A stretch of 64,000 nt of DNA from Podarcis vaucheri (taxonomy: Eukaryota): assembly GCA_965113315.1 (NCBI GenBank), contig OZ220363.1, one strand, 5' to 3'. This document shows, one piece after another, positions 10,555-52,189 of the stretch; within the stretch, counting starts at the first letter, position 1, and each line of letters begins with the position of its first letter. The notes below the pieces were generated by a model. That model saw nothing but the letters and a program-made list of their open reading frames with translations. It searched no databases and was not told the origin of the DNA. Both the position numbers and the translations under genes were made by a program.

Positions 10555-10799
10555 GGAACCAACTTGGTGTAATGGTTAAGAGCGGTGGACTCATAATCTG
10601 GTGAAACGGGTTCGCTTCCCCACTCCTCTGCTGGGTGACCTTGGGCCAGTCACACTTCTCTGTAGTCTCTCAGCCTCACTCACCTCACAGAGTGTTAGTT
10701 GTGAGGGAGGAAGGGAAAGGAGATTGTTAGCCACTTTGAGACTCCTTAAGGGGAGTGAAAGGCAGGATATCAAATCCAAACTCCTCTTCCTCTTCTTCT
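10555..10799 (+). mobile_element. tRNA-derived SINE (Squam3-like), second copy
   Basis: Aligns along its length with 23148-23400, with a short internal deletion. Confidence 0.85.
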
Positions 10800-10840
10800 G
10801 CTCACTGACCCATCAAGTGGTCACTAACTTGATATTTCAC

Positions 10841-10841
10841 T

Positions 10842-10872
<31 letters not shown>

Positions 10873-19419: not shown

Positions 19420-22400
19420 CGGTAATGTTGATCTCTCTTTGAAGAGCTCACAGAGATAGCAAACAGAGGCAATGAGGAGCACTACAGTTGTTCACCTGCC
19501 TGGATCTTTCATTTCATTGTAGTTTCACAAGTCTGCTGACTGGTTTTTGCCTATTGGAAGCAAAACCTTATATTCAGGAGGCTCAAAAAGCATGAACTTT
19601 GGAGGTAAAACCCATGACTTATGCGGCAGCTGTTTACCTGTGAGAGCAGCCTGTGCAGAAAGACAGCGGGGGGGGGGGAGGAGAGAGAACACACAATGGC
19701 CTTTGTGCTGGGTTAGTAGTTGCCTCTAGGGAAGGAAGAGGGTGCCAGAGGTTTTTATGTGGCTGCGCCCCCATTGCTCGATGCACTGGACCTCTGTGTG
19801 GTCCAGTAGCCCCTCTGGATTAGGTTTGAAAATGCCAATGTGAAAGCAGACTTAAACTGCACATCGTTTCTGTACCATAATGCCACCTCTAAGGAGAAAC
19901 ATAGACAACCCAAATTTTGTTGATTTTATCTATAACTTTTGATAAAACACTTTACAGTATTTTATGTAAACTGCTAAGATGCTTTTCTTTTTCTTTTGAT
20001 CAAGTGGTCCATTGCATTTTGTTACGTAGAATAAACAGCCCCAACAGTTTCCCGCATCTGCTGCTGTTATGTAAAACAACAAAATGGTGGGCACTCCTGA
20101 TCATAGATGCTGAATTGCATCTGACTTGGCCATGATCTGTCATACCTTGATGTGAACTTCTCGCTTGCCACAAATATTGTTAGGCCCATTTTCATCCTCA
20201 ACAGTGAGGGTACACAGCAACGTAAGCCCTATGGAACCGAGGCACCCAGCACATCCTCAAGTCCCCCCACCCTTCTTTTGCTAAGTGGCCTGTGGCATGT
20301 TCAGACTGGCAGGATGGTGGTCGACTAAGTTCTACTCAAAGTAGACCAGTTGGTATTAATAAACATAACTTAGTGGTGCTAATTAATTTCAGTGAGCTGA
20401 CTTTGAGGAAAGCTTAACGGAATACCATCCTCAGTATTTTGTGGGAGGGATTCAAGTGTCTGCCGGAACTTTAGGTTTGCACAGTTAAAGTGGATTACAG
20501 GCTTCTGTCACCCTTGCATAGCAAATCCACTAAAAAGGGAAAAGAACCCCCCCCCCCAAAAAAAAACTTTTTGTGATTTGGAAAGTGATGGAGAAATGTG
20601 TTGAAAAATGCATGAACACATGTGAATCGGGTTGAATGCTCATTGCCATATAACTGTTCTGTAACACATTGGAACAAGTGCTGAATAAAGACCAGACATA
20701 GTCTAACGGCTGGGTAAGCTCCGTGCAAGCAGATCAGGGTGAATGGTAAATAAACAGATCCTCTTAATGTGCTCTTTCCCCTCTGAAAATGGCATTGCAG
20801 GGGAAAGGGATGAGTCTCTTTCCTCTGTGTCCCCTACTAATGTTACTGTGGGTCTTTCAAATAGGATGACACTCAGGGTGCATTCTGAGATGTTTTCTGG
20901 CTGTGTTTGCAATTTAAAAATAATCACTTGAGCTTGGCAGAAGGATAACTTTGAGAGGGTTCTACTGGCACCAATAGGAGAATGCTGGTCCCATTGACCA
21001 AATAAAGATACATGTGTCCCCCCCTTTTTCTTTTGTTCCTCTGTTTCCTATTGGTGCCTCCTGCCCCATGTGCTTAATACAGCAGCAACACGAAGAGACC
21101 TGGACAAATTCACCCATGGCCACAGTTCCATTTTTCTCCACACAAACTAGCTGAGGGAGGTAGTTAGAGATCTGGAGAGCTGGTGTTCCTTCAAGAAAAG
21201 TGAGGAGTGGAGTGAACTTTCTCCTCCAGTATTACTTTGTGGCTTCCCCACAAAGTTCACCAGTTGATTTGAGGGCTATGTGTGTGGTTGCCCAGCCCTT
21301 GGGAAGAATGTTAGAGCTTCGTCCCATCTTTTTTAAAGCGAAGTGGGAGGCATGCCAGCCGATGGGCAACCTGGGCTACAAATAACCATTGTGGGAAAAG
21401 GTCAGTTTAGAGAAGCTATGTGTGGAGAGCTGCTTCTCAAAAGGGGCCAGAAATTATTTGATAGTCTTGGGTCAGCTGGATACATAGAAAACACTGGGAA
21501 GTAAGCTAGTATATTTTATGGCTGCAGCTTGTGAATACATATGTCTGCGTTCTCTGGAAAACAGTTACTTTAAATAAATTTTGGAATGGTGCTGAATGTG
21601 TATCTGTACCACTGTCCCATAATTGCTGGTGTATGAAAGAATGTACGTTATTTGCCGCTGCTTCTCTGGGCATATACTGGTTAAGCACTACTGTCTCTGT
21701 GTGTATTTCTTGATGGTTACTCTGTGTATACACATATAAAAAGTGTGATTGTTGCTTTTGAGTAGTATTTTATATGCAATTGGTGGTGGTGGTGGTTATT
21801 CTGAGTCCATGTCTGTTCCCGTTTGCTGAATATCTGTGTGTGTCCACATGCACTGTTCTGCTACACCCACCCACACCCCTATAAACACCCAAGTTTGGTA
21901 TTCTCTTCTCTCTTTTTAAAGTATTCTACAGCTTTAGTACCTAAGAAAGAGGGGAACGAAGTAGGGCATGCTCTCAGTGAAGACAACACAACTTTACTTG
22001 GTTGTCTGCCTTGTGTGATGGTTGGTCTAAACCCATTTTCATTTTATGCCCCCTGCTTCTGTGTGTTTGTGTGCGCACATGCTTTTGCTTAGGTAGTGTT
22101 CTGTAGGAAAGAAATTGGGCTTCCTGCTGGCAGGTTAGAACTTCGAAGCAGTTACGGAAGTGCTTGCTGTTTGCAGATAGGAACCCTATGACTTCACACT
22201 CTTCCATTAGGCCATCCTCCGTTCCTGAAGTCAATCCTTGGCTTATGGCCAGATAGAAGTCACTTTTTCCCCCTAAATGAAAGCATTCCATATTGTGGTG
22301 CAACCAGTTCCAGGAAACCTCACAGGAGACCTAAGAAAAAGGCAGAACGTTTCTGCGTGAGAAAGAAAGGATCCTCCAGTATGAGCTGGAACTCATGTTG

Positions 22401-22611
22401 AAACAATCCTATATCCCAAATTGCTTTGTTTTCTGTGCAATTAAACATTGCCTTTTTTATGTTTCATGAGCCCACTTCATGCATGCTTAAAATCCCTACA
22501 TGGAGCAGTCCTGAAACCTCAGCTGCAAAGAGAAAGTTATGTGTGATCTAATGAGACCATATAGTTTTCCATTGATGACTACACAAGCACAAGAGTATAA
22601 TTAAAAATGTT

Positions 22612-22727
22612 AAAATAAAAAAATTCCTTCCAGTAGCACCTTAAAGACCAACTAAGTTAGTTCTTGGTATGAGCTTTCGTGTGCATGCACACTTCTTCAG
22701 ATACTTCTTCAGATACTTCTTCAGATA
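22612..22727. mobile_element. Penelope-like element terminal (pseudo-LTR) fragment containing the hammerhead
   Basis: CCAGTAGCACCTTAAAGACCAACTAAG is shared with the 50932-51066 insertion; flanked by AAAAATGTT direct repeats (22603-22611, 22728-22736); 12-mer ACTTCTTCAGAT x3 at 22691-22726. Confidence 0.7.
22667..22704 (-). ncRNA. Minimal type-I hammerhead ribozyme motif (Penelope-associated)
   Basis: Minus strand reads GUAU-CUGAAGA-A-GUGUG(CAUG)CACAC-GAAA-GC-UC-AUAC: stem I GUAU/AUAC, CUGANGA box, 5-bp stem II, GAAA box, palindromic AGCU in place of stem III, UC cleavage site. Confidence 0.75.
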
Positions 22728-23147
22728 AAAAATGTTGTTGTTGCTGCTACGTAATAATGTATTAGATGCCATGGTTTTAAGTCATGGCTTCTTAGAATGA
22801 TTAAAAACATATAAACAGCATAATCACAGTCATGGTAACAGCAGTAAAAGTATTGTAGATCAATAGTTCACAGCCAACTATTTAAATGTAAGGCCTTAAA
22901 ATCAAGTTTGCTATCTATAAAATCACCTTTTTAAAAGCAGTCCTGAACAAAGACCTTTTTAAGAACCCGGGGGGGGAGGGGGGCTCATCATTTATCTGGG
23001 GGTGGGTGGGAGAGTAATCCATAGTTTTTGGGCTGCCTCAGATAAGGTCTCATCTGCTGTACCAGCCAGGCAGCCTGACCTCCCTTCCTGGTGGGCACAT
23101 GAACAGAACTTTGGTGGCTGATCTCAAATCCTTGACAGGTTATCCTT

Positions 23148-23400
23148 GAGAGCCAGTGTGGTGTAGTGGTTAAGAGCGGTAGTCTCGTAATCTGGGAAAC
23201 CGGGTTCGTGTCTCCGCTCCTCCACATGCAGCTGCTGGGTGACCTTGGGCCAGTCACACTTCTCTGAAGTCTCTCAGCCCCACTCACCTCACAGAGTGTT
23301 TGTTGTGGGGGAGGAAGGGAAAGGAGATTGTTAGCCGCTTTGAGACTCCTGAAGGGGAGTGAAAGGCGGGATATCAAATCCAAACTCTTCTCTTCTTCTT
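23148..23400 (+). mobile_element. tRNA-derived SINE (Squam3-like)
   Basis: A box TGGTGTAGTGG, B-box-like GGTTCG, CORE-like GGGTGACCTTGGGCCAGTCAC, (CTT)n tail; highly similar to 10555-10799. Confidence 0.85.
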
Positions 23401-25329: not shown

Positions 25330-27066
25330 AGGTTGGTCACACCCAAGGGCCTCTGGATGGCAGCCTATATGCCAAGGTGAAGAAGAAAGACTCACTCCAC
25401 GGCAGCACCGGCACCGTCAACACCAACCGCATCACGCTCTCGGCTGCCCCCAACCACATTGAGCACACACTCTCTGTTAGCAGTGATTCGGGCAACTCCA
25501 CCGCCTCCACCAAGACAGACAAGACTGACGAGCAAGCAGTGCCCACAGTCCCCGGCAGCAGCGGAGGAAGCAACCCTATACTAACCCCAGAGGAGAAGCG
25601 GGAGCTTGACAGCTTGCTCAGCGGCTTTGGCTTGGAGAACGAGGCCGCCATGCATAACCACAACCCCAGCGGGGGAGCAGTGGTTTCTTCCACCACCTCA
25701 GGCCGCCACATTGTTCCGGCTCAGGTGCATGTCAACGGGGAAGCTGCCAGCTTGGTGGCCGAGAGGGAAACAGACATTCTGGATGACGAGTTGCCCAACC
25801 AGGATGGGCACAGCGTGGGGAGCCTGGGCACCCTCTCGTCATTTGATGGCACCACCAACACCAGTGACATGGGCTACCACGAGGCTCCTCGGATGGAGAG
25901 CCTCAACTCCTTGCCCAATGGGTCGTCCAACTTCAACGGCATAGACAAGCTGCACGATTCAGAGACGGTGATCAATGGTGGCTACCCCTACAACAACCAG
26001 AACACCTTGCGGAGCATGATGGGACGTCACCCCCAGGACCCGTATGGGCACATCCGTCCTTCAGTGTCTGCCCAGGAGAATTTGGCCGACTACTACCAGC
26101 ATGGCTTCCCCACTCCTGGCTGGTTGCAACCCCAGCCACCAGCTGCCAGCCAGCAGTACCCTTACGGCTACGATCCAAATGGCATATACCGCTCACAGTC
26201 CTTCCCCACAGCGACTGCTGAGAGCCCCCAGCTGCCTCAGGCACCAGCCCGGAGCACGAGTAGCCGGGAAGCTGTCCAGAGGGGACTTAACTCTTGGCAG
26301 CAGCAAAGTGGAGGCAGCAGACCACCTTCCCGCCAACAGGATGGTGCCCGAGACAGCCAAAGTCCCAGTGTTTCCAGTGCAAGCCCTCAGCCCAGCCCTT
26401 CACAAGCAGCACCCCCTCAAAGCATCAGCATCCCTGAATTCCCCAGGGTGGCCTCCCAGAAGGAAATAGAGCAGTCCATTGAGGCCCTCAACATGCTCAT
26501 GCTTGACCTGGACCCTTCTGTCTCCATGATGCACAAGTCCCAGAGTGTCCCGGTGTCTTCCAGAGAAGATAAGCCACGCCCGGTGGCTCTCTCAGTATCT
26601 GCCCAGCCTGTGACTGGTCCTCAAGTGGTGCAGCCAAAGTCTACCAATCCTTTTGGCCCTATTCCAGGAAGCCCTTCCCACAACTCCATGGGCATCTCTG
26701 TGTCCCAGCTGCCTGACCACCAGGCGCCTAAAGCTCATCCCACAAAGCTATTGCTCCACAATGCTGCAGAGCCAGAGTACCCCGCGCAGGATGACCAGGA
26801 GGCTTATTTGTCCTATGGCTATCCAAACCAGCAAGCCAGGAGCTATGGCCAGGCTGCAGGAAGCCCTCCTACATCTCCCAGGCCTCACGCAATGGCATAT
26901 AAGCTCATGGAAGCTCAGCATCCCCTGCTGACCTCACCCCCATCCCCTGGGATGACAATTCAAGCCCAGGTACCAATAAAGAATGCGGAGAACAGTGAGG
27001 AAGCTTCTCGCCCCACAGAGGAAGAGCCTTTGCATCTTGAAGGTCTGGTGGCCCACAGGGTAGCAG
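25330..27066 (+). CDS. TNS1: Tensin-1 large coding exon (start of disordered middle region), phase 1 to 1
   Basis: Pyrimidine tract + CAG acceptor (25327-25329), donor G|GTAGGA at 27067, 1737 nt. Translation (E)[27 protein letters not shown]...[18 protein letters not shown]...[16 protein letters not shown]...[16 protein letters not shown] matches vertebrate tensin-1 as recalled. Confidence 0.97.
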
Positions 27067-27734
27067 GTAGGAAGCCTTATTCTCTGTTTTCTTATGAGTC
27101 AGGGGTTTTTATCCTTAGGGCTCAGAAGTCCCCCACCCCCACATAATATTTTAGGGCTGGGAAGAGAAGAATGCTGCTCAGGGCCCCAGTTTGTTTCATG
27201 TGGCTTAGTCCAAAATAGAATGGATAAACTGAACTGTTCCCACAGCAGTCCTGGGGGTGGTGTGTTGGGGGAATGCCTGGTAGGAGGGGCTCTCGCAACC
27301 ACACTTGCAAACAACATGCAAATGCCATAGGATCTATCTATGCCAGGAGTGGGTGGGTTTTTTGGGGAGGTAAACATGCCATACTTAGGCATGTTATACC
27401 TTTAAAGCACATTATTTCCCTCAAATAATTCTGTGCATTGAAGGTGGTTAAGAGTTGCTGGGAACTGCAACTCTTTAGTGCAACTGCTACACCCCATTCC
27501 AGATTATTTAACAAGAAGCATTTACCCTACTGTGAGGGGTAAACTGGTACCCAGAAATCTTTGGGGGGAAAGAATGTGCTTTAAATATATAGTGTGCACA
27601 TAGCCTTAGACACAAAGTATTTGTTAGTGCAAGTCTAGTGTGCAATATAGTCCTTATATAAAGTGTGTCATGCCCACCCTGATTGGCTTGGGGCAGTTTT
27701 GTCTCAAGAGAGGAGGGGCCACATGGAGGCCCAT

Positions 27735-27880
27735 TGCAATAATCCAGTCTTGAGGCTACCAGTGGATCAAAGTGGCTGCCTTGGTCCAGTAGCGGCTGTA
27801 GCTGTCTTACCAACCGAAGCTGGTAAAAGGCACTCCTAGCTGCCAGGGCAATTTGTGCCTCAAGTGACAGCCCTAGATCT
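27735..27880 (-). mobile_element. L2 LINE ORF2 fragment
   Basis: Minus-strand translation VRQLQPLL...LVASRLDYCN matches the L2 ORF2 motif L.RQLRPYL...LV.SRLDYCN. Confidence 0.7.
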
Positions 27881-49873: not shown

Positions 49874-50931
49874 GTAAGCAAGAGTAGTATAGTGATGGAG
49901 AGACTGGTACTATGGAGAATAGCAGCATCGTCTTTTGTACAACCCACTGTCCTGTTGCCAAGATAGAAGGCCCATGAAGTTTGTATTAAGTAGTTTTAAA
50001 GATACCCACTGCACACAGACTTTAAAATAGATTTTAGCTCTGGAGTATAAGCATATATTTTATTCCTTCAGTTACACAGCAGCAGTTGTTTTAGCAAATG
50101 GCATTGCTGTTCTCACAATCACTTTTCAAATCTTACCAAGCCCAGACCTTGATATTGCCTTAAGGTGGTGATTTCCATCAGCCAGCATCATTTTCTGTGC
50201 TCTACAAAAGTGCTTCCTTTCCTCAGTTCTGCTCTTGCCAATTTTGTATTTTTAATGTACATCCTTAAGTTGCTTGCATAATGAGCCTCCTGTTCATTTT
50301 CATTCATCATTTTTAATTATGGATGACAAGGAGAGATAAATCTTATTTATAGAACTGAGGCAGATTTGAAAAAAAGTACAAATCTGATTTGAACTTCTTC
50401 TTTTTGTCTATCTTGGATTCCAAATGTCGCAGAAGTTGGATTTCAACCATAAGACTCAAATTTTGGAGTCACATTCTGCAGTTTGCACTGCATCTGAAAG
50501 TCTGGCTCCAGTTTTTCTGTACAAATTCAATCAAGTGTGAATCTTCTATGGCCCTTATCCAATTCAAATAATCTGCAACTAATTGCATGTAATAACTAGT
50601 GGTGTCTGGATAGGGAACCACATCCCAATATGCTTCAAAAGACACAAACAGATCATTCACTGTGGCTCAAATAAGTATTTCATTGGGGATACAGATGAAG
50701 ACACAAATGCAGTCTTCCATATGTAACTCTTCCTTGCAGATTTGAGGCACATATATTTAATTTTAAAAGGAATGGCATATCTCAAATTTCCATATCTGGG
50801 GATTTACACTTACACGCAGATTATAAATTGTAGGATTATTCAGTGTGACGCTGCATATAATATTCAGTGTTGTAACAGTCTTCGAAATTACACAGATCTT
50901 GAGTGCTTGTTGCAGTAACTGAAATATGCTG

Positions 50932-51066
50932 GATTCAGGTAGGTAGCCGTGTTGGTCTGATGCAGTCAAAAAAAATATAAAATTAAAAAAATTGTCCAGT
51001 AGCACCTTAGAGTTGGTCTCTTAGTTGGTCTCTAAGGTGCTACTGAACATTTTTTAAAATTTATTT
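50932..51066. mobile_element. Penelope-like inverted terminal fragment
   Basis: 12-bp direct repeat TGAAATATGCTG on both sides (50920-50931, 51067-51078); internal 16-bp perfect inverted repeat 50997-51012 / 51030-51045; homologous to 22631-22657. Confidence 0.7.
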
Positions 51067-52189
51067 TGAAATATGCTGCTTAGTTTAAATTGCTCCAGTG
51101 GAATATATGTCATCCCACTCTTTAACATAAAATGTTAAGGCCCCATAATGCTTCTACAGTTTTAAAATTGAGTAAGTTTTACACTTGCCACTGGCTGGAT
51201 AGAGGAGCTGCCTGCTGGGGTGGGGCAGCCATGTAAACTGAACTGGGATTCCTGAAGGGTAAGAATAATAAACATATTATGACAAACTGTCACAGGAATG
51301 ATAGTGATTGCAATCAAGAAGCAAACTAAGAGATGTGAGATAAACTCCCACAGCGGAAGGGTAGGGAGTGAGCCCCAATCATGACAGTTTACAGTCTAAA
51401 CCGAATATTCAGGTGTAGAGTCAATATTTGCAGAGGTTTACATAAGCATGTGAGCTGCCTGCTACAGATTTTTTCACAAGTATGAACTTGCTAACCTGGC
51501 TCAAGCTGAAGCTGATTAGGAAAAGTAGAAACTGAGTCCTAAGCAAGCCTGAAATGCATTTTTTCAAGATTATCCATCCATCAGTATAATCAGCCACTTT
51601 ATGGACAGTACTTCATGCCATAGAAGGCTATTGAACATATCAGTCCTTTTAAGAACAACAACTGCAGAGTAAGAGGCTTGTAGTTAATAGTAGAGACCAT
51701 GATCAGTGTATTGCATAATGGGAAGCTACCAGGCTTTGCACATGTCCAGTTTGAGGAGGCATGCGTTGGAGCAGATTGGACAGTTGTTTTCATGAATGTT
51801 GCATCTCAGAGCTTGCATGGGGTGGAGGTGGGGACTCTAGGCTAGAAGCCTTCCGTTTGACTCACAAATGTTCCATGTGTAGAGAGATCCTTGGCATCAG
51901 AACATTTTTAAACAAGTACTCTCCCCCATGAGGTGATATTGTTGCTCCCCCCCCCAGTCAGGATTCACTCACATGCCCATAAATTCAGGATGTGCAATTA
52001 TAGTTAATTGGGAGGTCTTGCACAATACACTCACTTCTCCAAAAGATTGGGCTGTATGTGATAAAGAAAGCGATGGAAAATTCACTGGAATGTGTGGAAT
52101 AACACTTGGTGTCATCTCACTTCCACCTCTCCTTGTATGTATTTTCTGTGATTTAAGCAACAAGGTCTCTTTCTCTAGCAATATCTTAA

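Follow-up and report, generated by a model that had tools for sequence, protein, structure and literature searches.

The minus strand of a TNS1 intron in the lizard Podarcis vaucheri reads as a minimal hammerhead ribozyme (min-HHR) whose catalytic CUGAAGA box is repeated three times, which raises the question of whether the locus harbours a working intronic ribozyme with alternative folding registers or the residue of a mobile element. We analysed the motif within the 64,000-nucleotide stretch of contig OZ220363.1 that contains it (the window), and the features referred to below are collected in Table 1.

Table 1. Position, strand and basis of the features at the two repeat copies and the neighbouring host exon
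Feature	Position	Strand	Basis
Left copy of 9-bp target-site duplication (TSD), AAAAATGTT, AT-rich target	22603..22611		Direct repeat
116-bp insertion: pLTR stub, truncated at the 5' end and without tail, from a high-copy family, most likely Penelope-like	22612..22727	-	TSD, contigs
pLTR portion 3' of the hammerhead, with a U-rich tract at its end	22612..22666	-	Loose contig ends; tail at 50932-50967
min-HHR, type I, 38 nt	22667..22704	-	Direct reading; consensus and turtle row in Fig. S3 of PMC4209133
Predicted cleavage site UC^A	22670..22671	-	Sequence
GAAA box and palindromic AGCU (15.1-16.1) replacing helix III	22672..22678	-	Sequence
Helix II, 5 bp with CAUG loop; G10.1-C11.1 present	22679..22692	-	Sequence and folding
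CUGAAGA core box with extra A between positions 9 and 10.1	22693..22700	-	Sequence; extra-A trait in PMC4209133
Helix I, 4 bp	22704-22701 with 22670-22667	-	Sequence
Two extra 12-mers at the 5'-truncation junction, replacing family upstream sequence	22705..22727	-	Tandem-repeat analysis, contig depth
Right copy of 9-bp TSD	22728..22736		Direct repeat
Earliest coding exon of TNS1 within the window, encoding residues 475-1053	25330..27065	+	Protein comparison
Second family copy	50920..51078		12-bp TSD, one-arm tail, inverted arm; no hammerhead
12-bp TSD of second copy	50920-50931 / 51067-51078		Direct repeat
36-bp tail of second copy, one arm only	50932-50967		Sequence comparison
Fold-back of second copy	50968-51066		Inverted arm
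Period-12 duplication at the inversion point, 11 matching letters	51011-51033		Tandem-repeat analysis

Read from 22704 to 22667, the minus strand gives GUAU CUGAAGA A GUGUG CAUG CACAC GAAA GC UC AUAC, with C3 of the hammerhead at 22700. Both boxes, helices I and II and the UH site that a first-pass annotation had described as an intact minimal hammerhead can be read directly, and the predicted scissile bond, C22671/A22670, is the one that the annotation had proposed. Min-HHRs are defined by an extra nucleotide after A9, a G10.1-C11.1 pair and a palindrome replacing helix III (PMC4209133, in the portion available). The Podarcis motif has the CUGANGA box with one extra nucleotide and G10.1-C11.1, a helix II of at least 4 bp (here 5 bp) together with a short helix I (4 bp), and GAAA followed by a palindrome at positions 15-16 (AGCU) without helix III and then by U-H (UC). 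It thus matches the consensus of the same source, and the annotation's view of it as a Penelope-type hammerhead lacking helix III is upheld. Helix II and its loop (22679-22692) form a perfect 14-nt palindrome. A min-HHR descriptor, composed after the motif had already been seen, gave one match on the two strands of the 64-kb window and none in 150 first-order Markov resamples of the window, both strands included. The covariance-type hammerhead search that the annotation had suggested came back empty: Rfam reported no hammerhead in the whole window at the gathering score, and none at E<=10 on 351 bp, where four chance snoRNA/lncRNA rows appeared. The Rfam hammerhead-model match and helix III of the canonical or conserved intronic class are both absent from 22667-22704.

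The TNS1 exon at 25330..27065, 2.6 kb downstream of the insertion, fixes the identity and the strand of the host gene. It is 99% identical to Lacerta agilis tensin-1 and 89-90% identical to the next squamate matches; a protein-cluster search with this exon returned one chordate cluster and was uninformative. Tensin residues 1-474 are absent from positions 1-25300 among the 120 tensin proteins listed. Since the first TNS1 exon in the window starts at residue 475 and none precedes it, the insertion lies within a large intron, whose upstream exon may be located beyond the window; an alternative first exon in 1-25300 is also possible. The hammerhead strand is antisense to TNS1, as had been annotated.

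The insertion, put at about 115 bp by the annotation, measures 116 bp between 9-bp TSDs. Four of the 24 sequencing runs listed (X1, X4, X7 and X21) were compared with positions 22300-23050 at 82% likeness. In X4, the empty site is represented by one contig of 1116 nt (depth 17.9) that joins 22599 directly to 22725, its shorter side being 255 letters long, and that skips 125 bp, equal to the 116-bp insert plus one TSD copy; its flanks differ from the window at 3/300 and 8/326 letters. The left unique contig of X7 departs from the reference at 22611 and continues for 7 more letters, which suggests that X7 carries the empty site as well. The single-locus contigs of X1, which may be the window's own sample, enter the insert from both flanks with 0 differences, and no empty-site joint was listed for this run. 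An empty orthologous site in a close relative implies that the insertion is young or polymorphic and not a conserved host element. The orthologous conservation of conserved intronic hammerheads is absent here, and a conserved host ribozyme was rejected on the empty site in X4. The annotation had called the insertion a 'ribozyme cassette'; its small size stands, but the object is a pLTR stub with a truncated 5' end, the form in which the motif most often occurs according to the available part of PMC4209133. X4, labelled as the same species as X1, diverges in the flanks about as much as the differently labelled X7, which may reflect lineages that split deeply or a problem with the labels. The insertion could be used for presence/absence typing among lacertid lineages.

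Outside its unique flanks, the insert belongs to a repeat family that matched 8607, 8631 and 14582 contigs in three contig runs; summed depth reaches millions over 22612-22715 against 18-86 over most of the flank sequence, a figure that does not amount to a copy number. The family continues beyond both ends of the insert. Upstream of the hammerhead, loose ends unlike the extra 12-mers occur in 94-142 contigs per run and in 323 RNA reads; downstream, the family runs past 22612 into a tail (108-115 contigs and 198 RNA reads) that the insertion copy lacks. Both boxes are kept in most family copies, among the variants listed, bearing out the retention that the annotation had expected. At the cut site, C17 is replaced by U17, still a valid H, in 21-26% of the summed family depth, and among the core variants listed CpG-type changes at G12 and C11.1 make up 14-19%, as expected for decaying copies. 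Opposite-strand fold-back joints were present in all four runs, and several of them fall in or near the helix II palindrome. Together these data point to a recently active and very abundant family. Two copies of a SINE-like repeat, with ends in short TC-rich runs and similar translations, also lie in the window, at 23155-23400 and about 10560-10860.

Several features connect this family with EN+ Penelope-like elements (PLEs): a hammerhead in the terminal repeat; an optional tail of 30-40 bp at one end (36 bp at 50932-50967, absent at 22612), which recurs in the family loose ends; an adjacent inverted 5'-truncated copy, seen as the fold-back at 50968-51066; and short TSDs at AT-rich targets (9 bp and 12 bp), with the empty site in X4. 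An optional tail, an inverted truncated neighbour and a short TSD constitute PLE structure in the consulted portions of PMC3846280 and PMC8557442. Judged by its type of hammerhead, its tail and fold-back and its TSD, as read from sequence, the family is likely Penelope-like. A Pfam search of 144 of the 159 stop-to-stop open reading frames of at least 80 aa in the window, the 15 overlapping TNS1 exons being left out, matched 0/144, and neither RT nor GIY-YIG was seen among them. One minus-strand open frame at 27508-27879, without a Pfam match, we take to resemble a decayed LINE reverse-transcriptase C-terminal region. A degenerate hammerhead pattern found 0 viral contigs and 0 metagenome contigs. 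A matching family consensus was not found in the two published supplements searched, family motifs gave one unrelated match in the PMC8557442 supplement, and five family motifs retrieved unrelated papers only in a full-text search. The lacertid repeat sequence was likewise not found by motif and topical searches of published full text.

The second copy, which carries the tail and the inverted arm, is predicted to fold into a hairpin of -38.8 kcal/mol. It sits in another TNS1 intron and would form this hairpin in the pre-mRNA. Within the same pre-mRNA, 22612-22660 could pair across 28 kb with 51021-51066, at a predicted -40.8 kcal/mol, and the hairpin of the second copy would compete with this pairing.

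The 12-mer containing CUGAAGA, annotated as occurring three times, forms an array of 3.1 copies that are 100% identical (22691-22727). X1 short-read contigs run from the right flank into 22698-22727 without any difference; the array is therefore no assembly slip, and an assembly artefact as its source is ruled out. Depth past the first 12-mer relative to depth over it is 0.07%, 0.04% and 0.05% in the DNA runs and 0.3% in RNA, so low that the triplication must be nearly private to the insertion copy, although one paralogous X1 contig also reaches 22714. The array coincides exactly with the 5' truncation point, where helix I has its 5' edge. We considered and rejected a hotspot of truncation at 22703-22704: loose ends accumulate at this point because the window departs from family sequence, and those of X21 at 22703 resemble copies that continue with a one-base variant. 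The C at 22704 fits two readings, as a templated base or as the first base of the duplicated unit. Only the 12-mer is repeated and the window holds one hammerhead, whereas in a retrozyme the whole hammerhead unit stands in tandem; a non-LTR retrozyme tandem was rejected on these grounds. The triplication is likely a copying scar at the junction, devoid of ribozyme function of its own. With two junctions as the source of any statement on its origin, the sequence is compatible with re-copying by host repair, by slippage or by the element RT.

According to the annotation, the extra CUGAAGA copies might offer alternative folding registers. We examined this by constrained folding, in which both helices and an open core were imposed, using nearest-neighbour energies that leave out tertiary contacts and proteins. 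For the bare 38-mer, the predicted probability of the native register is 0.12; adding one 12-mer brings it to 0.007, and adding two to 0.11. It is predicted at 2.5e-3 in the insert minus the extra 12-mers versus 1.6e-4 in the whole insert, and, once 100 or 200 nt of flank are included, at 1.7e-4 or 7.5e-4, respectively; within the insert, the extra 12-mers would thus make the native fold about 15 times less likely. Their predicted pairing partners are one another or pLTR sequence further downstream. Registers built on the second or third box reach modelled probabilities of 2e-9 to 4e-8 in short constructs and 5e-14 to 2e-11 in longer ones, and are 9-14 kcal/mol worse than the native register, since G10.1-C11.1 would then close just 2 bp ahead of a bulge of 12 or 24 nt. 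The proposal of alternative registers, at predicted probabilities of 1e-8 to 1e-14 versus 1e-1 to 1e-4 for the native one, was rejected on these energies. Given the single GAAA box, the single cut site and these far worse registers, the extra boxes should add no ribozyme. The AGCU/AGCU helix is worth only -2.5 kcal/mol in the model. For the bare core, the dimer of lowest predicted energy is a 14-bp duplex formed through the helix II palindrome (-30.6 kcal/mol); since this dimer provides no helix III, it was not counted as a route to activity.

The annotation had further suggested that the hammerhead could cut an antisense transcript or pair in trans with other copies. In X21, a single-cell RNA run under another species label of which about 12% was examined, 1445 reads matched, all of them on the repeat and on both strands, with peaks of about 410 on the plus strand and 580-640 on the minus strand. 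X21 reads on the unique flanks were none. With no flank reads, another species label and a run read in part, these data say little about the 22612-22727 locus itself. Read ends in X21 do not pile up at the cut site, a weak test in a fragmented library; this agrees with the Anolis element PAc, whose RNA-seq ends were likewise absent at the cut site in the part of PMC11167929 available. With an empty site in a close relative, no RNA reads on the flanks and no pile-up at the cut site, the suggested antisense cutting or trans pairing is unsupported.

The same reads carry 15 rows of A>G or T>C changes, from which a genomic variant at 22644 and three rows with fewer than 40 reads were dropped. In 11/11 remaining rows the excess lies on the strand that A-to-I editing should affect (p<0.002 for 9 of them), at levels of 4.8-13.3% in X21 RNA versus 0.2-1.2% in DNA of X7, which bears the same species label but comes from another individual. 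The rows span 22641-22669, one being in the 3' arm of helix I. Strand-specific change of this kind resembles ADAR editing. In X21, however, strand differences are also seen at three non-editing variants, so a mix of expressed loci contributes to the signal. Heavy editing of lizard Penelope repeats has already been reported (PMC5625713, as far as available). If edited, some family RNA would be double-stranded and not hammerhead-folded.

In our judgement it is highly probable that 22612-22727 is a young, 5'-truncated and likely dead-on-arrival Penelope-like terminal-repeat stub with a standard min-HHR and a likely junction scar. What is observed is the TSD, the empty site and a high-copy family that runs on past either end of the insert and in which other copies almost entirely lack the triplication. 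The GIY-YIG endonuclease of the element would have nicked the AT-rich site, and its RT would have primed on uncut RNA at the inner of two start sites; the inner site is proposed because the tail is missing, and an uncut template because both sides of the cut site were copied. Reverse transcription may then have stopped early at the 5' edge of helix I, with the last 12 nt presumably re-copied via 1-2 nt of microhomology during 5'-end joining, and replication slippage perhaps added the third 12-mer afterwards. For activity in the parent element, the hammerhead would have needed a partner copy giving helix III via AGCU/AGCU, probably with protein assistance. At the TNS1 locus it is predicted to be inert, as TNS1 transcription reads the non-catalytic strand, the window is without a partner hammerhead and the extra boxes would act as decoys.

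Three other explanations were weighed against the stub. That the intron holds an active ribozyme, cutting an antisense transcript or pairing in trans and tuned by three registers, we regard as very improbable. It would agree with the intactness of every min-HHR element, with the presence, in a related species, of family RNA from the hammerhead strand (about 60% of matched reads) and with the predicted ready-fold probability of 0.12 for the bare 38-nt core. This probability is predicted to drop to between 2e-4 and 7e-4 in context, however, and the penalty on the extra registers, the single GAAA box and cut site, the missing read-end pile-up and the empty site in the close relative all count against activity. 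So do published min-HHRs: as far as PMC4209133 could be consulted, the Schistosoma monomer was uncleaved and dimer cleavage was low, and cleavage by the Anolis PAc hammerhead needed the element's protein (PMC11167929, in part). Unlikely, if less so, is a non-autonomous MITE- or SINE-like short unit moved by Penelope enzymes in trans. Very high copy number and the length of both window copies (<140 bp) would suit such a unit, and non-autonomous PLE derivatives with hammerheads are described in the accessible part of bioRxiv 10.64898/2026.07.22.740005; but the window copies end differently and the family continues past both insertion ends, a picture closer to variable truncation than to a fixed unit, and the repeat is not tandem like a retrozyme. 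A short unit would leave the verdict on function unchanged.

The third explanation concerns the array and not the stub as a whole: a telomerase-related RT would habitually realign its cDNA end by 2 nt at the template boundary and re-copy 12 nt. PLE RTs are the sister group of telomerase (PMC8557442, consulted in part), both window copies show a period-12 duplication exactly at the 5' junction, the array begins at the helix I 5' edge, and the paralogous X1 contig extends to 22714. Yet only two junctions are at hand, the same 12-mer duplication accounts for at most 0.04-0.07% of family depth, and the C at 22704 suits a templated base as well as the start of a duplicated unit. Short junction duplications also arise by host end-joining or slippage, which counts against re-copying by the RT, and no report of telomerase-like 12-nt re-copying by a PLE RT appeared among the literature search listings. 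We therefore hold such a habit to be improbable, and it is similarly doubtful that the array is a fossil of telomerase-style repeat addition with the period-12 duplication of the second copy as another product. Were it true, thousands of genomic junctions would be a record of synthesis by realigning and re-copying in telomerase's sister group; an excess of 5'-junction tandem duplications traced to the element enzyme is the only such result that would surprise a specialist. The truncated stub remains our preferred reading. The hammerhead type was described in 2014, reptiles included, and the 116-bp copy would be one among thousands of stubs; depletion of intact hammerheads on the intron sense strand, if found, would show in vivo activity.

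Among known systems, the amniote intronic hammerheads of RECK, CTCL and DTNB (PMC6155905, in part) are also of type I and located in vertebrate gene introns. They are conserved across species and similar to the canonical hammerheads of retroelements, whereas the TNS1 copy is without helix III, antisense and missing in a close relative. The EN+ PLE insertions with inverted pLTRs (Arkhipova et al. 2013, PMC3846280; Craig et al. 2021, PMC8557442) have, in the parts consulted, a 30-40 bp tail at one end, an inverted 5'-truncated copy and a TSD of 8-10 bp, to which 50920-51078 corresponds with a TSD of 12 bp; unlike them, the Podarcis copies are ORF-less stubs of 116 and 135 bp. Poseidon PAc of Anolis carolinensis (Frangieh et al. 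2024, PMC11167929) likewise combines a lizard host, a pLTR hammerhead and AT-rich targets. In the accessible portion of that paper, PAc uses an uncut RNA template and two RT start sites, to which the optional tail, called unique to PLEs, is traced. Its ORF starts where stem II begins, while the Podarcis copy has the CUGAAGA box and is ORF-less, the two being likened here by description only.

The closest counterparts are the min-HHRs of PMC4209133, which in the part available are reported in turtle and snakes, most genomic examples being single and probably derived from truncated PLEs. Compared with these, the Podarcis motif is distinguished by a 4-nt loop II, a helix II that forms a 14-nt palindrome, the private triplication and its lacertid host. 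The row for the turtle Chrysemys picta bellii in Fig. S3, which stands outside those marked as PLE-ORF-linked, is identical to it in the box, in GAAA-GC-U and in helix lengths. Compared by eye, the two differ by a C-G to U-A change in helix I and a G-C to U-A change in helix II, both compensatory, and by the cut-site base, C17 in the lizard copy versus U17 in Chrysemys.
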